Shown piece by piece: positions 425-11,806 of a DNA stretch of 64,000 nt. A model generated the notes under the pieces. That model did no database searches and was not told where the DNA came from. It saw only the letters and a list, made by a program, of their open reading frames with translations. Both the position numbers and the translations under genes were made by a program. Within the stretch, counting starts at the first letter, position 1. Each line of letters opens with the position of its first letter. The stretch covers positions 677 through 64,676 of the IMG/VR virus record IMGVR_UViG_3300028591_000212; one strand, 5' to 3'. This DNA comes from a virus (taxonomy: Duplodnaviria; Caudoviricetes).

Positions 425-499
425 TGGAGTGGGCGGGGGGAATTGAACCCCTATATCCGCCTTGGCAAGGCGGCGCACTGACCGTTGTACTACGCCCAC
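425..499 (-). tRNA. trnG: tRNA-Gly(GCC)
   Basis: Cloverleaf; anticodon arm CCGCC-TTGCCAA-GGCGG; U73; encoded CCA. Confidence 0.95.
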
Positions 500-504
500 A
501 TTTT

Positions 505-581
505 TGGCAGTCCGTACCGGATTCGAACCGGCGGTCTCTTCCGTGACAGGGAAGCATGTTAGGCCACTACACCAACGGACT
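505..581 (-). tRNA. trnD: tRNA-Asp(GTC)
   Basis: Loop CTGTCAC, TTCGAAT T-loop, G73, CCA. Confidence 0.95.
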
Positions 582-585
582 ATCT

Positions 586-671
586 TGGTGCTCGAAGAGG
601 GACTTGAACCCTCACGCTATCGCTAGCAGCGGATTTTAAGTCCGCTTTGTCTACCATTCCAACATTCGAGC
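586..671 (-). tRNA. trnL: tRNA-Leu(TAA)
   Basis: Loop CTTAAAA, long variable arm, CCA. Confidence 0.95.
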
Positions 672-674
672 ATA

Positions 675-753
675 TGGGGTGCCTGACAGGATTCGAACCT
701 GCGAATACCAGAGCCACAATCTGGCGTGATAGGCCAACTACACCACAGACACC
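675..753 (-). tRNA. trnH: tRNA-His(GTG)
   Basis: Loop TTGTGGC, G-1 and C73, CCA. Confidence 0.93.
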
Positions 754-809
754 ATATTTCTTTCTTACCTTACATAATAATTATAACATAAATTTTGATA
801 TTTTTCAAA

Positions 810-885
810 TGGTAGCTCCATTCAGACTTGAACTGAAATTACAGGGATATGAATCCTGTGTACTGACCGTTTATACGATGGAGCT
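810..885 (-). tRNA. tRNA-Met or Ile2 (CAT)
   Basis: Acceptor AGCTCCA/TGGAGCT, loop TTCATAT, CCA. Met vs Ile2 cannot be resolved by eye. Confidence 0.88.
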
Positions 886-887
886 AT

Positions 888-964
888 TGGTGCGGATTGA
901 CGGGCTCGAACCGCCGACCTATTGCTTGTAAGGCAATTGCTCATCCCAACTGAGCTAAATCCGC
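888..964 (-). tRNA. trnV: tRNA-Val(TAC)
   Basis: Loop CTTACAA, canonical arms, CCA. Confidence 0.95.
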
Positions 965-966
965 AT

Positions 967-1040
967 TGGCTGCCACTAAGAGAGTTGAACTTCTATCACT
1001 TGGTTCAGAGCCAAGTATCCTACCATTAGACGAAGTGGCA
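967..1040 (-). tRNA. trnQ: tRNA-Gln(CTG)
   Basis: Loop CTCTGAA, U1-A72, G73, CCA. Confidence 0.93.
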
Positions 1041-1044
1041 ATCT

Positions 1045-1120
1045 TGGTGGGAGCTCCCAGGGTCGAACTGGGTTCCTCGGATTTTCAGTCCGTTGCTATG
1101 ACCGCATCAGCTAAACTCCC
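1045..1120 (-). tRNA. trnF: tRNA-Phe(GAA)
   Basis: Loop CTGAAAA, CCA; A27.A43 mismatch. Confidence 0.93.
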
Positions 1121-1130
1121 ATTAAATTAA

Positions 1131-1155
1131 AAGCCTTCTCATAGAGAGAAGGCTT
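1131..1155 (-). terminator. probable intrinsic terminator
   Basis: AAGCCTTCTC/GAGAAGGCTT 10-bp stem followed by T run on the minus strand. Confidence 0.6.
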
Positions 1156-1411
1156 AACTTGTTAAAATTCTTGTTAAAATAAGTCTAACTCTCTATACTA
1201 CTGGGCACAATAAAAGTATCTTCACCATCAAAGTGTTTAGGGTTTAAAATCATCGCATTCACTGTAATTTCAAATCGTTTCATACTTTTATTCCTTTCCT
1301 ATCTTTACAATTATATTATAATATAAATTTAATATAATTGCAAGTAGAGAGACTAGCTCACTACTTATATTAAATTGTCATACCAAAGAACATAACAATT
1401 TTGTCCTTAAA

Positions 1412-1496
1412 TGGCGCCGTGCACAGGATTCGAACCTGCAAGCCCTTTCAGACCAACGGTTTTCAAGACCGCTCCCTCACCACCCGGACACACGGC
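1412..1496 (-). tRNA. trnS: tRNA-Ser(TGA)
   Basis: Loop CTTGAAA, variable arm, G73, CCA. It reads UCN and is not a UGA suppressor. Confidence 0.93.
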
Positions 1497-1499
1497 ATT

Positions 1500-1574
1500 T
1501 GGCACCCTCGGTAGGATTTGAACCTACATCTGACGACTTAGAAGGTCGTTGCTCTTCCGTTAAGCTACGAGGGT
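1500..1574 (-). tRNA. trnR: tRNA-Arg(TCT)
   Basis: Loop CTTCTAA, CCA. Confidence 0.95.
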
Positions 1575-1578
1575 ATAT

Positions 1579-1658
1579 TGGTTCGCCTTCGTGTTAATTC
1601 ACGAAAATTATTTCGCTGCCTTTGAGCAGTCTTAGCATAGTCAATTCTATGCGGCGAC
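1579..1658 (-). ncRNA. non-canonical tRNA-like cloverleaf RNA ending in CCA
   Basis: TCGCC/GGCGA acceptor plus ACCA end; hairpins GCATAG/CTATGC, CTGC/GCAG and TTCGTG/CACGAA; no TTC T-loop; sits in the tRNA array. Confidence 0.6.
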
Positions 1659-1760
1659 TATGATACCTTTCGATAATAACCTTAAATTCTGATTAGGACT
1701 GGCTATTTTAATGTATTACTGAATACGTTATTATCGCAGTTACCAAGTATTTGTCATTAA

Positions 1761-1843
1761 TGGTGGGCGAAGTGGGACTCGAACCCACACGCTTTAGCAC
1801 TAGTTTCTAAGACTAGCTTGTCTACCAGTTTCAACATTCGCCC
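1761..1843 (-). tRNA. trnL: tRNA-Leu(TAG)
   Basis: Loop CTTAGAA, variable arm, CCA. Confidence 0.95.
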
Positions 1844-1845
1844 AT

Positions 1846-1922
1846 TGGAGGTACAGATGGGATTCGAACCCACGAATAATGGTGTTGCAGACCACTCCCT
1901 TAAGCCGCTTGGGTACCGTACC
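1846..1922 (-). tRNA. trnC: tRNA-Cys(GCA)
   Basis: Loop CTGCAAC, U73, CCA. Confidence 0.93.
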
Positions 1923-1930
1923 ATATATCT

Positions 1931-2216
1931 AAAGCCTTCCTTAAATCACTTCATTTAGCTATTAAGGTTCCCCTACCATAATTTGGGTTTCACACAAACC
2001 CGCTGTCACCCTTTTCACCCTCTTGGAATAACTGCGAATACTGCACAATTAAGGAGTATCCCAACACTTGCTATTCGGAGTTGTAGTCTCTGTTGTCGCG
2101 GTATCTTTTTACTAGCATCTCAGCTAATGCGTGCGTCGAACTTCCTCTACTTTCGTAGCGATAGATTCTGCGTAGCCGACGTTCTGTTTTTCAATCTATC
2201 ATTTATCTAAGGCTTT
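1931..2216 (-). ncRNA. rnpB: RNase P RNA, bacterial type B, circularly permuted (opened in P18/P15.2, P1 replaced by a 6-nt linker)
   Basis: 5'-3' order: P18' AAAGCCTT, CR-IV AGATAAATGA, P2' GATAGATT, CR-V ACAGAA-CGTCGGCT-A, linker, P2 AATCTATC, P3 CTAC-GAAA-GTAG, CR-I GAGGAAGTTCGACG, P5 CACGC, P5.1 GCTGAGATGC, S-domain, P5' GTGTG, P15 CCC-AAATTATGGTA-GGG, P15.1 CCTTAA/TTAAGG, P18 AAGGCTTT. P4 pairs 8 bp with a bulged U. Confidence 0.88.
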
Positions 2217-2225
2217 ATTTTCTTT

Positions 2226-2299
2226 TGGTGTGAGATGCGAGATTTGAACTCGTACCGTCAGTTTGGAGGACTGAAATGCTACCATTACACTAATCCCAC
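2226..2299 (-). tRNA. tRNA-Gly(TCC)-like, atypical (C33, A73)
   Basis: TCAGT-CCTCCAA-ACTGA anticodon arm, TTCAAAT T-loop, CCA. Confidence 0.8.
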
Positions 2300-2335
2300 A
2301 TTATTATTATAACATATTTTTTATAATTTTCAAAT

Positions 2336-2412
2336 TGGTGTGCCTAGTGAGATTCGAACTCACACTCTATAAGGTTTGAGCTTATTGCCTCTACCAGTTG
2401 GGCTATAGGCAC
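2336..2412 (-). tRNA. trnL: tRNA-Leu(CAA) with a short (class I) variable loop
   Basis: ATAAG-CTCAAAC-CTTAT, 5-nt variable region, A73, CCA. Confidence 0.88.
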
Positions 2413-2422
2413 ATTTGATGAA

Positions 2423-2608
2423 TTAGTATCTAAATTCATCAACTACCGCAATAATAATACAAACAATTATCACTATTGCGGTTAGGAAAACAGGAATAGT
2501 TACTATCCACCAACTATTCAAGATATTAAGAACTTTTAAAAGAGCTAAAATAGTTGTAATAACTATTCCTAACAATATAACATCAGATAATTCTACTTCT
2601 TTGTTCAT
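2423..2608 (-). CDS. small two-helix membrane protein
   Basis: 61 aa, two hydrophobic stretches, GGGG-A SD. Confidence 0.7.
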   Translation of the reverse strand: MNKEVELSDVILLGIVITTILALLKVLNILNSWWIVTIPVFLTAIVIIVCIIIAVVDEFRY

Positions 2609-2617
2609 ATATTTCCC

Positions 2618-3121
2618 CTATTTTGAATATTTATCTGCTACAAAAGAGGCGGCATATGAATTAGGTTTAATTTCATAATCATAACCTACTGCTGTAACCC
2701 AACCTTCAAGTTCTTTAATTAAATCTTTTGTCGGGCCAGAAGTGCCTATATCGAGATGGATTGAAAGATTTAGTTTATCTAAAATATTTTCATCTTTATC
2801 TAAGAGATTTGATACAAGTAAATCGGCAGTTTCAATAGATAGTTGGGTTTCTGTATATAATTTTGTGCGTAGGTCTCTAATGCCAGCATGGTCAAATTTT
2901 TTATAGAAATAAATTCCTCCATTACCTACTCTATGCAAAACGATGGCTAAAACAAAATGAGTATCTTTATATGTCATTGAATCTGTACCAATAGATAATT
3001 GATATTCTCTATCAGGTATCTCGTCAACAAAGCTAATTATCCTATTTAATACTTCGTCTAATGTCATCCGCTCATGTTTTGCATTTTGAAACCTTGTATT
3101 TTTATCTATTCTGAACTCCAT
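2618..3121 (-). CDS. RNase H-like YkuK/DUF458 family protein
   Basis: Motifs IGTDS, YTETQLS, IHLDIG, KPNSYAAS..AD; start moved to ATG 3121 behind a GAGGA SD. Confidence 0.8.
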   Translation of the reverse strand: MEFRIDKNTRFQNAKHERMTLDEVLNRIISFVDEIPDREYQLSIGTDSMTYKDTHFVLAIVLHRVGNGGIYFYKKFDHAGIRDLRTKLYTETQLSIETADLLVSNLLDKDENILDKLNLSIHLDIGTSGPTKDLIKELEGWVTAVGYDYEIKPNSYAASFVADKYSK

Positions 3122-3132
3122 ATATAATCCTC

Positions 3133-3546
3133 TTATTTTTCTTCTGAATACCAATCCCAACTTAAATGAATGTCAAAGCTCTTGTCGTCGTCACCCCAAC
3201 GGAAAATGTATTCAGTTTCTACATCATCACCATTGATAGTATTTAGGTTAGAATCAGCTTTCATGGTTCTTAACAAACCTTCTGGGTCACTTGTTGCTTT
3301 ATTAATGTAATAATCGTATGTTGATTTGTTCTTGCATTTAATGAGATAATCGGCAGAACGAATACCAAAAGTACGAATATCAAATCCAACCCAGTAAGTT
3401 GTGCCCGGGCCTTCGTCAAACCCATGGACATTTGCCCACATTGCTGCTTTGTTAGGCCAAAAGACAGACTCATCATAAATATGATTAACTCAATGAGTTT
3501 GTTCGCTTGAACCCAATATTTTCTTTTTAATCCATTTTAAACACAT
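3133..3546 (-). CDS. hypothetical protein (TGA=Trp at 3490-3492)
   Basis: AAGGAG SD before ATG 3546; MCLKWIKKKILGSSEQTH[W]VNHIYDESVFWPNKAAMWANV... is in frame with ORF 3133..3441. Confidence 0.75.
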
Positions 3547-3563
3547 ATATTTATCTCCTTATT

Positions 3564-3638
3564 TGGTAGAAGTATCTGGACTCGAACCAGAATCTAACGG
3601 TTATAAGCCATTTGTTCTGACCTTTAAACTATACTTCT
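3564..3638 (-). tRNA. trnI: tRNA-Ile(TAT)
   Basis: AATGG-CTTATAA-CCGTT, A73, CCA. Confidence 0.9.
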
Positions 3639-3671
3639 AGACTAAAGGGGATTTAAAATCCCCTTATAATA

Positions 3672-4190
3672 CTATTTGCAGTTGCAATTACAGTCTTTTT
3701 CAAATACTACATCTGTTGTGTAGAAAATGCCAGGTGTATCACTGAAAATATCTCTTGCAATATCTTCATACAATGTTGATTTATAGCCATTAGGGTTGTC
3801 CATCTGGTCATTATAGAACTGAACCACCTTATTAGCGAAAACAACATAGTTGAATGAGAATGCTGTAGTATCGCCTGCTGAAGCAATATAAGACAATGCT
3901 GAGTTGCCATCAAAAGCATCTTTTAATAATTCAAGTTTTGATGGAACACCATTTGTATCATTATCAGGGACTACTTTAATTTTTACTGTCACGTTACCGA
4001 AAACTTTTTGAGTTGGTAATAATTGAGTTAAAGCGTCTGCTTTTCTAGCACCGTGTACATATAATGCGATTTCTAATCCGTCATTGTCATCGGTATAAAC
4101 TACTTTAACATCTGGGTCGTTTTCAAATAACATTTCATACTCATGTAAATAAGTCATTCAAGGCGTTGATAATTTAAGATTGTTTGTCAT
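3672..4190 (-). CDS. conserved phage hypothetical protein (TGA=Trp at 4158-4160)
   Basis: GGAG SD before ATG 4190; MTNNLKLSTP[W]MTYLHEYEMLF... is in frame with ORF 3672..4157. Confidence 0.8.
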
Positions 4191-4214
4191 TGATTTCTCC
4201 TCTATACTAAAAAA

Positions 4215-4303
4215 TGGCGCTGCCTCCGGGACTCGAACCCAGACACCGCTAATCGCGATGGATGCCTTAGCAGGGCATTGAGATACCATTACTCCAAGGC
4301 AGC
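4215..4303 (-). tRNA. trnS: tRNA-Ser(GCT)
   Basis: Loop CTGCTAA, long variable arm, G73, CCA. Confidence 0.95.
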
Positions 4304-4426
4304 GTTTCATCGCCCTTTTTACAACGATTTACCTTTCGTTCGCAGCCAGCAAGGGCCACGGACGCTAGGTGGCGAAGCAAGGATAATCGTGAACCAATAT
4401 TAAAACACCAAAAGGTGTAATAATCA

Positions 4427-4502
4427 TGGCTGGGGTAGGTGGATTCGAACCACCGAAATGCAGGAGTCAAAGTCCTGTGCCTTACCGCTTGGCTATGCCC
4501 CA
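4427..4502 (-). tRNA. trnQ: tRNA-Gln(TTG)
   Basis: CAGGA-CTTTGAC-TCCTG, U1-A72, CCA. Confidence 0.95.
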
Positions 4503-4510
4503 ATTTTGAC

Positions 4511-4631
4511 AAGACGCCCTTATTAAATGCTCCACCTATTGAGCTACACGTGTTTATAACACCTGATAGGACTCGAACCTATAACCTTTGGTTTTGCAGA
4601 CCATAAAGAATATTTTTGCTGAAAGCGTCTT
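4511..4631 (-). tRNA. circularly permuted tRNA-Cys(GCA) gene (3' half precedes 5' half, break at 27/28) inside an outer helix
   Basis: Order: TGGT-CTGCAAA-ACCAA (pos 28-43), AGGTT, ATAGG-TTCGAGT-CCTAT, CAGGTGT-T (66-73), ATAA, ACACGTG-TA-GCTC-AATAGGTG-GAGC-A-T (1-27). Flanked by AAGACGC.../...GCGTCTT. Confidence 0.75.
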
Positions 4632-4647
4632 TAATATTTTTACTTAA

Positions 4648-4734
4648 TGGTGGGCCGAGGTGGAGTTGCACCACCGATGTTTCTCATGTCACAGTTTTAC
4701 AGACTGTTGCCCTCGCTACTAGGCATACCGACCC
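4648..4734 (-). tRNA. trnY: tRNA-Tyr(GTA)
   Basis: ACAGT-CTGTAAA-ACTGT, variable arm, CCA; T-loop TGCAACT. Confidence 0.92.
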
Positions 4735-4738
4735 ATTT

Positions 4739-4813
4739 TGGCACCAGTGCAAGGACTCGAACCCTGACCCGCGGTTTTGGAGACCGTCATGCTACCATTA
4801 ACACCACACTGAT
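4739..4813 (-). tRNA. trnW: tRNA-Trp(CCA)
   Basis: ACGGT-CTCCAAA-ACCGC (A27.C43 mismatch), U11-A24, G73, CCA. Confidence 0.93.
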
Positions 4814-5028: not shown

Positions 5029-5286
5029 CCTTATAAGATTACTGATAAATTCTCTCTACAATTACACCTTTGTATACCAAAAATACCCTTGACAATTAAG
5101 AGTTATAACTGAACTATTTTGTAGTGATTGTAAATTAAATTTCTTCATACTTATATTATACAAAAGTTTTCTTACTTTTGTCAATTGTATTACGCTGCTG
5201 AACTATAATATGATGGGTTTTTGCCCTTGTCAAATAAAGATAATTATTATTAACCATAATTGATAAATAAAGAGAGGGCACGATAT

Positions 5287-5421
5287 ATGACAATTATTTC
5301 TTTAAGAATTTCAAAGGAAGATAAAAATAAATTGATGGAGTATGCTAAACAAAATGATTTAACAATTTCACAAGTCATTCGTAGAGCAATTCGTTTATTT
5401 TTTAAGCAAAATGCGGAGTAA
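5287..5421 (+). CDS. ribbon-helix-helix (CopG/Arc/MetJ-like) DNA-binding protein, 44 aa
   Basis: MTIISLRISKEDKNKLMEYAKQNDLTISQVIRRAIRLFFKQNAE: beta strand ISLRI, two helices, S-x-VIR-x-AI signature; GAGAGGG SD; below the ORF-track cutoff. Confidence 0.75.
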   Translation: MTIISLRISKEDKNKLMEYAKQNDLTISQVIRRAIRLFFKQNAE

Positions 5422-5532
5422 TCCGCCTTTTTTATTGAAAAATTCCCAAAGCACTTTTTGTTCCTATGTGTCTCGCTCGCCGGCGGCGCACTCAATCATT
5501 CAAATAAAAAAAGGGGTGATTATTCACCCCAT

Positions 5533-5826: not shown

Positions 5827-6237
5827 CTAATTTTCTTCTTCTTTTAATTTATATTTTGTAACAACAACCTTATCAAATTTATCTTCCAACTTATCCCAAT
5901 GACTCATATCGCCCCAACCATCTTCTCCAAGTTCCTTATAAACCCATTCTTTATCATAAAGATAGCAATATTCACACCAACTATCTTGTAATATTTCATT
6001 AAATTCATTGATATCAACGACTTTTAAATTTGTTTTAATATTTTCATAATAATCCGCACCATCTTTATCAAGAGAGGACATATCGCCGCCATCAACTAAT
6101 TTTATTGCACGGTCAGATGAGTTATAATAATTTAACAAGGTTTCGCCAACTCCTGCTAAATAACCATCAAAGTGACAATAAGAGAAATGAATTTTATTAT
6201 CTTTATCAACATATCCAATATAGCTTCTTGTACTCAT
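5827..6237 (-). CDS. conserved phage hypothetical protein (MSTRSYIG...YCHFDGY family)
   Basis: 136-aa ORF, GGAG SD, motif frequent in large phages (from memory). Confidence 0.75.
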   Translation of the reverse strand: MSTRSYIGYVDKDNKIHFSYCHFDGYLAGVGETLLNYYNSSDRAIKLVDGGDMSSLDKDGADYYENIKTNLKVVDINEFNEILQDSWCEYCYLYDKEWVYKELGEDGWGDMSHWDKLEDKFDKVVVTKYKLKEEEN

Positions 6238-6242
6238 GGTGG

Positions 6243-6437
6243 TTAATCTCCTATGCTCATAAATTCTGCATATCCATCTTCATATTCAATCCAATCGCCA
6301 TAAGCAGCTTCAATACAATCAAGGATTTCTCCGTGCTCACCATGTTTTGTTGGACCGAGTGCAGTATCTAATTCTTCTTCGCTCATTTCACCATTCCAAT
6401 AAGCGATTAACAAATCCATTACGTATTCTGGCAACAT
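6243..6437 (-). CDS. hypothetical acidic protein
   Basis: 64-aa ORF behind its own promoter and GAGG SD. Confidence 0.7.
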   Translation of the reverse strand: MLPEYVMDLLIAYWNGEMSEEELDTALGPTKHGEHGEILDCIEAAYGDWIEYEDGYAEFMSIGD

Positions 6438-9076: not shown

Positions 9077-9808
9077 CTAGTCTTCCTCCTCTTCTAACAC
9101 TAAAACATTTACTTTACCACTATGAGCGGTACAAGCGTCAATCGCAATAATACCGTCATCTTCAAAAATACCAAAGTTGGCATCTTCCCCAAACTCACTA
9201 CCTTGTTTGTGTAGGTAGTGGTGTCCCCAAGAAGTATGCCAGTGTCCGCAAACAATGGTTTTTGCATCACGATGACCATTTTTCCATCTAGCCATACCGT
9301 TAAACCATCTTGCTTCTTCCCACTCATACTTGTCAGCATTGCCAGGAACACGCCAATCTACTACATTTGGTATCCAGCCATGTACGAAAACATAATTTTT
9401 AGTTTCATAGTAATTGCGGCACTCTTTAAAGTATTCCATTAAATCTTGATTTTTGCTCAAAGAACGAGTGGCTATATCAACAGCAAACCATTCTTCAGAA
9501 GGTGATAAACGCTTTATAGTATCAATAGTACCATTTGAAACATCGTAACTAAAATACCCACGTTTTCCTCTAACTAATTCTTCAAGTAAATCTTCGTGAT
9601 TACCACGAATAAAAATTCTTCTATCTTCTGGTAGATTCATTACATATTCTAAGCACTCTGCTGGCTTAGTTCCTCTATCAAAAAGGTCGCCACAAAGTAT
9701 GAAAAAATGCTCTGGGTTTGATTTTTGATACCCAGCTTTATCTAAAGCTAGAAGCATTTCGTCATAGAATGAGTGAACATCACTTACTATAAAATATTTT
9801 CTTTTCAT
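9077..9808 (-). CDS. calcineurin-like metallophosphoesterase
   Basis: SDVH, GDLFDRG, GNHE, VHG, GHWH motifs. Confidence 0.9.
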   Translation of the reverse strand: MKRKYFIVSDVHSFYDEMLLALDKAGYQKSNPEHFFILCGDLFDRGTKPAECLEYVMNLPEDRRIFIRGNHEDLLEELVRGKRGYFSYDVSNGTIDTIKRLSPSEEWFAVDIATRSLSKNQDLMEYFKECRNYYETKNYVFVHGWIPNVVDWRVPGNADKYEWEEARWFNGMARWKNGHRDAKTIVCGHWHTSWGHHYLHKQGSEFGEDANFGIFEDDGIIAIDACTAHSGKVNVLVLEEEED

Positions 9809-9867
9809 ACATATATATTATAACATATTTTTTTATAAAATAAAAGAACTAGACTTTTTATCTAGTT

Positions 9868-10995
9868 CTAAGCCATCATACTAATTAGATTAGCATAAGG
9901 TAAAAATTCGTTTTCTGGTTTGATTATGAATTGAATTTGTTTTACGGAAGTCATTACATCTTCTTCTCTAATTGGAGTTACATCGCCATAATCATCTTCA
10001 TATAACTTATCAACTTTATCCAAGAAGAAGAACTTGCCGTTCTTATCATATTTAATATTGGCTATTGAGAAACCAAGACAGCATTCGCCATTATATAAGT
10101 TATTTCCACTATCCAAGAAAAGGCGGGATTGTGGGCGATACCAGTCTATTGTGTAATTATCAACGGTATCCTTTTTGCCATTTTCATAATAAACAACGGC
10201 TTTAAATTTGCTAGGCTGACTAAACTCAATATTCAAATCGTTTAATGAAGAGCCAATATCATAGCCTTTATTTAATTCAATCGCTAAAGCACGCAGATTA
10301 TCATAAGTAAAAGGATAGAAAGTATCTAGACTTAGAATCTGCTGAATCAAATTTTCTTTATTGTCAACTGTGAGGTGGTCATTTAGATATTCCTCAACAG
10401 AATCGGCATCTGGTTTTGTTAATCTAAAATGGTAATAAAATCTGCCCGGGCGGTTCAGCATATAATCATTTAGCATATGAGTTTTATTACAAGTTATAAT
10501 ATATAACTTATTACCGCCATCAACCCCATCAAGCAAAGATAAGAAATCTGCTTGAGGGTCAAACCCAGTTTCTCTATCTTCAGCAAATTTCTTTTCAAAT
10601 TCATCAAAGATAACTACAACTCTCTGGTCAATTGACGCAAGAAAATCTGTTAGACCGGGGGTGTATTCTGAACACGTAATAACGGGAATGTTATTTTCTA
10701 TTGCCTTAATACAAATAAGACGCATTAAAATTGATTTTCCCATTCCACTTTCGCCAGATATAATAACGCCGAAATTACGATTGCTGGTTGAATATCCTTC
10801 TAAAACTTTATCGGCTTTTTCAGTTAAGCCGCCATAGATTTTAGTTTCCTTTACCTCTAACGGCGCACGCATAACTAAAGAATATCCAGTCATTTTATTG
10901 AAGTCAATATCATAATACTGTGCTGGCAGGTTATCATACGTATTAAGTACGTTTGAATAAATTATAAACCTATCTCCCGAATTAACTATCCGCAT
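9868..10995 (-). CDS. AAA+ ATPase
   Basis: Walker A GESGMGKS, Walker B VVIFDE, sensor TCN, LNRPGRF arginine finger. Confidence 0.9.
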   Translation of the reverse strand: MRIVNSGDRFIIYSNVLNTYDNLPAQYYDIDFNKMTGYSLVMRAPLEVKETKIYGGLTEKADKVLEGYSTSNRNFGVIISGESGMGKSILMRLICIKAIENNIPVITCSEYTPGLTDFLASIDQRVVVIFDEFEKKFAEDRETGFDPQADFLSLLDGVDGGNKLYIITCNKTHMLNDYMLNRPGRFYYHFRLTKPDADSVEEYLNDHLTVDNKENLIQQILSLDTFYPFTYDNLRALAIELNKGYDIGSSLNDLNIEFSQPSKFKAVVYYENGKKDTVDNYTIDWYRPQSRLFLDSGNNLYNGECCLGFSIANIKYDKNGKFFFLDKVDKLYEDDYGDVTPIREEDVMTSVKQIQFIIKPENEFLPYANLISMMA

Positions 10996-11806
10996 TGTTA
11001 AGCTCCTCTTTCATATACGTTCTCATAATTTTATTTAATACATCATCTAAAAATTTATCTGTCTCTTGGTTTGGTTTAAGTGACTCCGCAGGAGCGAAGC
11101 TCTCATATTCTTTTTTTAAACTAACTGCTCTATCTAAATATTCTTGAGCAATTTGTTCTGCTACTTCTGGAGTATAAGAAATTTGACCTCTTTTTACTTT
11201 ATGAAGATAATCCACACTAAAAGGAATTAAACAATCTTCATAAGGCACACCTTTTGAGTACATTTTCATGAACTCATAAACCCTAATCAAATGAGATAAT
11301 TGCTTTGGGTCATATCCAAATTTATCAAGCCAATATTTTCTGCTAGGATATTCATGTAATAAAGCATGGAATTTTTCCGAGCACATGCCGCACATAGTCT
11401 TCATAGCTTGAAGAGGATTGTAGTGGGCAATTTCTTCTTTTCTGCTGATTAATAAATCCCAATATTGCTGATAAATTGGATTAACAATAACATACTTTGT
11501 GAAAAGAGTTTCAACAAAGTTGATGTTTTGTTTTCTATATTGGTTAAACATTAGACGGATATCTTTAATGTCGATATGCTCATCGTTAGCACGCACATGC
11601 GTGTAAGATTTTGCTTCGTGATTAAAGATAATATCATCTAAGCTTGGCAAAACAATGGCTTTGCTGTCGATATCACTATCTTTATCCGCCATATTATAAT
11701 TTTGTGAGCCTTGTAAACATAATGCAAAAACTTGCTTTTCTGGAATAATAGTAAGCAATTCTTGGTAATGTTCTGCTAATCTTTTTTCAATTTCTTTCTT
11801 TCTCAT
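10982..11806 (-). CDS. Pol-beta superfamily nucleotidyltransferase (RlaP/NrdC.11-like)
   Basis: QGSQNY...DSDID catalytic motif; K.LSHLIR helical C-domain. Confidence 0.8.
   Translation of the reverse strand: MRKKEIEKRLAEHYQELLTIIPEKQVFALCLQGSQNYNMADKDSDIDSKAIVLPSLDDIIFNHEAKSYTHVRANDEHIDIKDIRLMFNQYRKQNINFVETLFTKYVIVNPIYQQYWDLLISRKEEIAHYNPLQAMKTMCGMCSEKFHALLHEYPSRKYWLDKFGYDPKQLSHLIRVYEFMKMYSKGVPYEDCLIPFSVDYLHKVKRGQISYTPEVAEQIAQEYLDRAVSLKKEYESFAPAESLKPNQETDKFLDDVLNKIMRTYMKEELNNADS

Follow-up and report, generated by a model that had tools for sequence, protein, structure and literature searches.

A probable circularly permuted RNase P RNA gene of type B ancestry in the tRNA array of a phage

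Can RNase P's RNA subunit occur in nature with its chain opened at an unaccustomed place and its usual ends joined? Of the two ribozymes that nearly all cells have in common, RNase P RNA is one. In bacterial RNase P RNA the two chain ends are joined by helix P1, and, to our knowledge, the chain order with P1 joining the ends has been treated as invariant. The question is raised by a locus in a 64,000-nucleotide stretch of DNA (the window) from a large rumen phage of the Caudoviricetes, which covers nearly all of a 64.7-kb IMG/VR virus record (IMGVR_UViG_3300028591_000212) with a CheckV completeness estimate of 36%. On the minus strand of the window, between a tRNA-Gly and a tRNA-Cys gene, lies a 288-nt segment (2217-1930), the bulk of which an earlier note, made from the letters alone, had read as a circularly permuted, P1-less type B RNase P RNA. 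Our analysis leads us to regard this segment as probably a real and selected phage gene for a circularly permuted RNase P RNA of type B ancestry.

The RNA is delimited by its similarity to a homologue, the JGI metagenome contig L137, which begins and ends exactly at 2217 and 1930. Read 5' to 3', it opens with one strand of a 9-bp terminal stem (2217-2209; AAAGCCTT at 2216-2209), which RF00011, the Rfam model of bacterial type B RNase P RNA, aligns to the 3' strand of P18. After this strand come CR-IV with J18-2 (2208-2201, AGAUAAAU; first read as AGATAAATGA at 2208-2199), which matches near-invariant positions of the 104 bacterial RNAs introduced below; the P2 strand that is 3'-proximal in canonical RNAs (2200-2193, GAUAGAUU, or GATAGATT as first read), which forms 8 bp with 2167-2160; and CR-V (2187-2173), containing the 3' strand of P4 (2181-2174) and placed by RF00011 alignment and pairing. 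A linker (2172-2168; ACGCAG at 2173-2168 in the first reading), whose length and sequence are not the same in the window and L137, stands in the place of P1. It is followed by the P2 strand that is 5'-proximal in canonical RNAs (2167-2160, AAUCUAUC, previously AATCTATC), the P3 hairpin CUAC-GAAA-GUAG (2158-2147), CR-I (2147-2134, GAGGAAGTTCGACG) with the 5' strand of P4 (2142-2134) and its bulged U2139, and the 5' strand of P5 (2133-2129) with the P5.1 hairpin (2128-2111). All of these are placed by RF00011 alignment, joined by pairing for the P2 strand and CR-I and by covariation for P5 and P5.1. A reduced specificity domain (2105-1996), recognised by comparison with L137, precedes the 3' strand of P5, the AAA of J5/15 and P15/L15 with its GGU at 1977-1975 (1995-1971 in all, RF00011 alignment). 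The P15.1 hairpin (1967-1939, likewise aligned to the model) comes directly after L15, and the RNA closes with the equivalent of the P18 5' strand (1938-1930; AAGGCTTT at 1938-1931), which aligns to RF00011 and pairs with 2217-2209. The motifs named in the earlier note (CR-IV, P2', CR-V, linker, P2, CR-I and the GGT of L15) were all located at the positions it gave. Because the ends are paired in P18, the topology of the folded core is still that of an ordinary RNase P RNA, and nothing has shifted except where the chain begins and ends.

Homology to RNase P RNA, and the rotation itself, are visible in the way in which Rfam meets the locus. In native order, RF00011 matches 2163-1919 (58.8 bits, E 1.3e-15, model positions 11-317), aligning P3, P5, P5.1, P15/L15 and P15.1 and passing over the specificity domain by local ends. 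The final positions of the match, CR-IV and the 3' strand of P2, are forced onto the spacer and the start of tRNA-Cys, and the real CR-V is not found downstream. The CR-IV-like AGATATAT that Rfam uses there, beyond the 3' end of the RNA, was rejected as a chance likeness because a variant carries ATGAGCCT at this place. When the 49 nt of 2216-2168 were searched by themselves, they aligned to model positions 298-365 as the sole minus-strand match (9.1 bits, E 0.46), in the order P18 3' strand, CR-IV, P2 3' strand, CR-V and without P19; the low score is explained by the pairing partners that are missing from the piece. As the earlier note had anticipated, a covariance scan thus sees this RNA only in fragments, here a match below the gathering score and a separate 49-nt alignment.

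A 25-nt block around L15 (1971-1995) is shared without a single change by 114 bacterial type B genes, and the 104 of these that have complete flanks served as the comparison set for element order and for a sequence profile. The canonical order CR-I, L15, CR-IV, CR-V was found in all 104, and only in the window and L137 do CR-IV and CR-V lie about 40-60 nt ahead of CR-I. The colinear order of bacterial RNase P RNAs (Rfam clan CL00002), from P1, P2, P3 and CR-I through to CR-V and P1', is therefore not that of the window RNA. The profile of the 104 RNAs hits the native window sequence in three separate matches; once the window sequence is rearranged, the L15 and CR-IV/CR-V matches merge and become colinear, with the score going from 32.7+0.6 to 48.5 bits. 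This gain, the RF00011 alignments of both parts and the homologues with the same ends together sustain the permuted order. The window RNA is at most about 55% identical to any of the compared bacterial RNAs, and thus no recent capture from any of them. Its assignment to type B rests on the presence of P5.1 and P15.1, two hairpins that both align and pair, and on the absence of P6, P16 and P17; these hairpins and the GGU of L15, all claimed from the first reading, are carried by the covariance-model alignment and by compensatory changes.

Is the permuted fold under selection? L137 was found with a pattern that places CR-IV, CR-V and CR-I in permuted order; the same kind of pattern had no match in 185,579 species genomes. 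Positions 1143-1432 of L137 are 91-93% identical to the window RNA, the similarity is bounded exactly by the two strands of the terminal stem, and the flanks of the two RNAs are unrelated. Of the 32 substitutions between them, 23 fall in paired columns, and not one pair is broken. In ten pairs, which belong to the terminal stem, P2, P5.1 and P12, both partners have changed; three are changed on one side only, to or from G.U, and all eight indel columns are unpaired, lying in the linker or in loops. P5.1 has four of its six pairs changed on both sides, one A-U pair of P2 in the window is G-C in L137, and the outermost pair of the terminal stem is U-A in the window and A-U in L137. With partner columns slid by 1-3 positions, pairing was 35-48% with no compensatory pair, and the observed pairing values were reached by 1 of 500 shuffles. 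The structure was derived from the window and L137 themselves, which inflates the paired percentage but does not create compensatory changes. Furthermore, contig X4 from a bovine run provides a third homologue, matching 1932-2215 with 20 substitutions and 8 gap positions. In a script reconstruction its P2, linker and P3 equal those of the window and its P5.1 and P12 are near those of L137, and its three private substitutions at paired positions turn G-C into G.U or G.U into A-U. The proposed structure is thereby borne out by covariation in homologues, through the compensatory pairs between the window and L137, the lack of broken pairs and the covariation of P4 and P2 in phages.

Searches of larger collections added no further permuted homologue. 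A looser permuted pattern gave more than 117 matches in IMG/VR, none of them homologous by nhmmer, which we attribute to chance; block searches of IMG/VR with the L15 block and with a specificity-domain block had no match, nor had the closed P18 hairpin sequence described below. Blastn of the window RNA against INPHARED gave no match at E 1e-5, and a search for loci with an alignment of the protein encoded next to the RNA in L137 found none. Bacterial rnpB compared with phages picked out matches in four records named as Staphylococcus, Enterococcus and Listeria phages; these matches are suspected to be bacterial DNA and were not used.

The window stretch was also found in sheep-gut metagenome runs. 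Exact contigs from one run (X1) cover 1700-2023, 2082-2228 and 2199-2450, and an exact contig from a separate study (X3) covers 2080-2330. These independent contigs bridge the linker and both junctions with the flanking tRNAs, so that the arrangement is no assembly artefact, a concern that the earlier note had itself raised. A sheep-gut metatranscriptome (X2) contains window-identical contigs at 2082-2200 and 2171-2281, with other variants at greater depth; a metatranscriptome library can contain DNA, and transcription of the window RNA is therefore suggested only. Cover in this library just upstream of tRNA-Gly (2298-2349) is almost nil, but since a gap in contig cover is no proof of anything, it was not used as evidence of a transcription start. 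Further runs (X5-X24) had small word shares, to which no weight was given.

RNase P-like RNAs in canonical order are present in other phages. At E 1, the INPHARED search led to L252 and L253, and a pattern search extended these to nine contigs of huge or large uncultured phages (L252-L260, 50-735 kb, including LR756511.1 and LR756501.1). Their RNAs, at about 1340-1540 (+) in L252, about 1335-1550 (+) in L253 and at the pattern matches in L254-L260, are roughly 190-320 nt long and have CR-I (GAGGAAGTTCG), CR-IV, a CR-V ending in CGGCTAC, and covarying P2 and P4. Rfam gives no RNase P match for L252 or L253 even at E 10, and the identity of these two as RNase P-like RNAs rests on motifs and pairings that we read ourselves.

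We next consider the core. CR-I, CR-IV and CR-V are all present in the window RNA, CR-I and CR-V with paired substitutions at three near-invariant pairs. In a gapless alignment to the bacterial consensus, P4 forms 8 pairs (2142-2134 with 2174-2181) with the bulged U2139 at its usual place. The GAGGAAG of CR-I, entered as a caveat in the earlier note, does not reflect a deletion: an A>G and a G>U change are answered in CR-V by U>C and C>G. A and G occupy these two CR-I positions in 103 of the 104 bacterial RNAs. The exception is L209, a Mycoplasmataceae genome (MAG Cc175_bin115) whose canonical rnpB carries the exact phage variant, GAGGAAGUUC / GGGCUA; thus, the two changed P4 pairs occur in a bacterial genome's canonical rnpB. 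In the region around its L15 match, this type B RNA has the P4 variant GAGGAAGTTCC / GTGGGCTA, canonical order and no P19. The third changed pair is G-C in the phage and C-G in all 104 bacterial RNAs. When eight phage RNase P-like RNAs are compared, five combinations are seen at the three distal P4 pairs, each of which preserves the pairing, and P2 covaries as well. An 8-bp P4 with its bulged U and with compensatory differences from Bacillus, as first proposed, is therefore well founded.

P1, which joins the chain ends of an ordinary RNase P RNA, has no counterpart in the window RNA. In its stead there is an unpaired linker of 5-9 nt and variable sequence: 5-6 unpaired bases in the window, and 3 nt more, of different sequence, in L137. 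Among the distinct canonical phage RNAs, five of six have, by eye, a P1 between CR-V and the P2 strand, and the absence of P1 inferred at first reading stands. As for the new ends, the interval from P15.1 to CR-IV holds a short P18 hairpin in bacterial type B RNAs. In L253 a closed hairpin, AAGUC-GAAA-GACUU, stands right before CR-IV, and at the P18 position a variant in X2 forms a closed hairpin of 9 bp whose loop is GUAA. The split P18 strands of the window RNA and the closed hairpins of its relatives identify the P18 loop as the breakpoint. The pairing of the new ends at P18, another claim of the first reading, is in keeping with the RF00011 alignment, with homologues having the same ends and with the closed hairpin of the relatives.

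The specificity domain has been reduced. The interval from P5.1 to the conserved ACAACAGAGAC strand (P10/11) is no longer than about 14 nt, which leaves P8, P9 and the P10.1 expected of type B missing; the P7-P8-P9-P10 cruciform is not formed, and a P7-like stem, a P10/11-like stack and P12 (2076-2026) are retained. In a variant found in both sheep DNA runs (X1 and X3), P12 is lost as well, the 54-nt hairpin corresponding to window 2023-2078 being replaced by three bases. In type A RNAs, P8 is the usual docking site of the P18 loop. Loss of P8 removes this docking site, which would make the loop a harmless place to open the chain, and the permutation may have been tolerated since the docking partner of the loop is absent here. 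Most likely, the permutation would have arisen by tandem duplication and subsequent loss of the outer parts.

What would such an RNA do? The window RNA retains a catalytic core, the adenosines of J5/15, the L15 GGU, P5.1 and P15.1. Among the tRNA features read by bacterial RNase P RNA are CCA and U(-1). The first 5 kb of the window hold 19 tRNA genes, all on the minus strand (425-4813); all 19 encode the 3' CCA, and 17 have T/U at position -1. Since the core and the L15 GGU are kept and the tRNAs have CCA and U(-1), our reading is that the RNA works as an RNase P RNA together with host RnpA; that it cleaves tRNA precursors is what we infer from its sequence. Phages may have evolved working circularly permuted RNase P ribozymes, in which P1 has been lost and the ends are clamped in P18.

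The locus suggests how the RNA could be made. Its upstream neighbour, 8 nt away, is a tRNA-Gly(tcc) gene with encoded CCA (2299-2226), and directly 5' of this gene a promoter-like site (2333-2306; TTGAAA, 16 nt, TG-TATAAT) is proposed on its consensus match alone, with 11 of 12 consensus positions and an extended -10. Downstream, a tRNA-Cys gene (1922-1846) follows after 7-8 nt, and a site scan found no terminator-like site 3' of the promoter-like site until past the next tRNAs. The spacers between adjacent tRNA genes of the window are often just 2-5 nt. The RNA would be transcribed from 2333-2306 together with tRNA-Gly, tRNA-Cys and tRNA-Leu and be freed from the joint transcript by tRNA-processing enzymes, a cut at the 5' end of tRNA-Cys defining its 3' end. 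It would then bind host RnpA and cut the 5' leaders of phage tRNA precursors, and as a consequence tRNA maturation would be raised or secured during infection. Release by tRNA processing, as the earlier note proposed, fits the window and one variant; a variant in X3 lacks tRNA-Cys and has a tRNA-Leu(tag) 8 nt past the 3' end of the RNA. However, it does not fit L137 and the bovine contig X4, in which no tRNA comes next and the RNA instead precedes a ribosome-binding site with a protein gene (with its ATG in X4).

Several observations weigh against a working permuted ribozyme. The RF00011 score of 58.8 bits in native order lies below the family gathering score of 97. In minimum free energy, the window RNA cannot be told from its shuffles (z -1.23), so that folding energy alone is no evidence. 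Three P4 pairs depart from invariant or near-invariant bacterial pairs: A-U and G-C have become G-C and U.G, as in 1 of the 104 bacteria, and C-G has become G-C, as in none, and these pairs sit at the metal-binding heart of the ribozyme. With P8, P9 and P10.1 absent, reading of the tRNA elbow may be impaired. The protein genes that follow the RNA in L137 and in the bovine variant mean that release by tRNA processing cannot be general. RnpA (PF00825) was not found in the 64.7-kb record, which, at about 36% completeness, says little. Finally, the gene is sporadic: no RF00011 match is present in nine related phage records, which were found via neighbouring proteins and of which four are 93-96% complete, and the CR-I 11-mer is absent from the five related records tested. 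Among related phages, the gene for the permuted RNA counts as accessory.

With P4 pairs altered and P8 and P9 gone, a derivative that is not catalytic is also conceivable, that is, an RNase P-derived decoy or regulator that does not cut tRNA and either soaks up host RnpA or tRNA precursors or competes with the host RNA. A decoy would sit well with the alterations at near-invariant P4 positions, with a specificity domain devoid of P8, P9 and P10.1, with the accessory nature of the gene among related phages and with its leader-like place ahead of a protein gene in two contexts. We nevertheless consider it unlikely, as every P4 change is compensated, the bulged U, CR-IV, CR-V, J5/15 and the L15 GGU are all kept, and the same P4 variant is found in the canonical rnpB of a bacterial genome. 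Moreover, a decoy for RnpA alone would need neither the CCA-binding site of L15 nor the geometry of P4.

A second alternative is that the linear gene is a precursor or a part, and that the working form is a circular RNA or a tandem or partly duplicated product in which P18 is closed. It derives from a 198-nt variant contig of the X2 library (depth 8), which in RNA sense runs 2001->1936, 15 nt, 2211->2157. The 15 nt complete the 9-bp P18 hairpin; CR-IV and CR-V come next, and after CR-V there still follow the linker and the P2 strand. This contig could represent a relative with a tandem or partly duplicated gene, a circular RNA or an assembly chimera; the first of these is the stage through which a permutation by duplication should pass. 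Two genes about 7 kb away, one for an RNA-repair-type nucleotidyltransferase (matching RlaP weakly) and one for a phosphoesterase, would also suit this alternative. However, the 15 nt are absent from the flanks of the window RNA, so the joint is no ligation product of its own transcript, no RNA ligase was identified, and at the DNA level the contigs that belong to the window's own variant are of the open kind. The evidence in favour is moreover a single contig at depth 8 from a k-mer assembly of a sample with several variants, and could be chimeric, and we hold this alternative to be quite improbable. That the segment is a decaying, rearranged fragment of a host rnpB or an assembly artefact, as its Rfam score below the gathering score, its abnormal order and its absence from related phages might suggest, is scarcely credible given that independent assemblies (L137, X4 and the exact X1 and X3 contigs) agree in ends and order, that 23 stem substitutions leave no pair broken and that identity to the 104 bacterial RNAs is about 55% or less.

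If the segment is, as we favour, a selected gene for a permuted RNase P RNA, and if that RNA works as a ribozyme, it and its homologues would be without precedent as natural permuted RNase P RNAs, and would belong to the first ribozyme subunits of a universal cellular enzyme known from viruses. Full-text literature searches found neither a natural permuted RNase P RNA, in agreement with the earlier note, nor a phage-encoded RNase P RNA, and a 2024 review mentions permutation solely for tRNA probes. A natural and conserved rotated version would mean that selection keeps the fold and not the connectivity, and would be a counterpart in nature to the engineered permutants of folding studies. The ribozyme would join the translation-related genes carried by large phages and would make it testable whether a large tRNA array obliges a phage to have additional capacity for tRNA processing, or capacity independent of the host. 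Furthermore, the natural variants, without P8 and P9, with or without P12 and with changed P4 pairs, would make a ready deletion series for the minimal needs of the enzyme. Standard covariance-model annotation overlooks such genes or returns only a sub-threshold fragment.

Other features were noted in and around the tRNA array. Two gaps in the array on the minus strand, of 291 nt (1121-1411) and 186 nt (1575-1760), have neither a tRNA gene nor an Rfam match; promoter-like sites lie within array gaps at 1343-1315 and 1757-1730, with a terminator-like hairpin at 1155-1131, and these gaps may hold other small RNAs or short genes. The interval between tRNA-Gln and tRNA-Tyr (4522-4590, minus strand) has a weak match to the Y RNA-like YrlA (RF02553; 32.4 bits, E 3e-4, below the gathering score). 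An open reading frame at 2618-3160 on the minus strand (180 aa) matches PF04308 (RNaseH_like) strongly, with 159.6 bits, and its homologues in nine IMG/VR phages (39-71% identity) adjoin tRNA arrays across the phage group. Related phages of 160-176 kb have a tmRNA gene in or beside the tRNA array (L128, 10831-11185; L136, 5727-6076), just downstream of the homologue of this reading frame in L128; two of the related phages lacking the permuted RNA carry tmRNA in the array. L125, a contig of a distantly related phage, has two group I introns (RF00028) at 5225-5526 and 6069-6313 (82 and 75 bits). Near the tRNA array, on the minus strand at 9077-11806, a gene trio encodes a calcineurin-like phosphoesterase, an AAA/STAND-type ATPase (phrog_2376) and the nucleotidyltransferase that weakly matches RlaP, an RNA-repair family, and may be a tRNA or RNA repair module.

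How does the window RNA compare with known systems? With bacterial type B RNAs of the B. subtilis rnpB type, it shares CR-I, CR-IV and CR-V, P2, P3, P4 with its bulged U, P5, P5.1, P15 with the GGU loop, P15.1, a P18-equivalent stem and the 25-nt L15 block. It differs from them in being phage-encoded, in having its ends in the P18 loop instead of P1 and a 5-9 nt linker for P1, in lacking P19, P8, P9 and P10.1, and in three changed P4 pairs; at 288 nt it is also shorter than a typical type B RNA of roughly 330-400 nt. Circularly permuted RNase P RNAs engineered in the Pace, Harris and Pan laboratories in the 1990s reportedly stayed active. In these, likewise, the old ends were joined and new ends placed in a peripheral loop; however, they were laboratory constructs for cross-linking and folding studies, whereas the window RNA is natural, conserved and part of a phage tRNA operon.

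With the canonical RNase P-like RNAs of huge phages, of which we found no published account, the window RNA has in common the P4 signature GAGGAAGUUCG ... CGGCUAC and a short CR-IV-P2-CR-V block without P19, and some of these miniatures are adjacent to tRNA genes, as it is. In contrast, they have canonical order, a near-absent specificity domain and mostly no P15.1 or P18, whereas the window RNA and L137 are permuted and keep P7, P10/11 and P12.

Rotated gene order with a preserved fold is known from other natural RNAs, namely two-piece tmRNA, the SRP RNA of Thermoproteus and the permuted tRNA genes of Cyanidioschyzon. The canonical chain of that SRP RNA and of the permuted tRNAs has to be restored by cutting and ligation, whereas the window RNA would need no re-joining, its ends being held by a 9-bp stem as in two-piece tmRNA. 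Loss of peripheral helices around a preserved core also links the window RNA to reduced RNase P RNAs, such as that of Mycoplasma fermentans, which lacks P12 as do the X1 and X3 variants, and the type T RNAs of Thermoproteaceae. CPR bacteria have naturally reduced RNase P RNAs in which canonical order and P1 are kept (PMC8172020). All of these reduced RNAs thus retain the canonical order and P1, and it is in these two respects that the window RNA stands apart from them.

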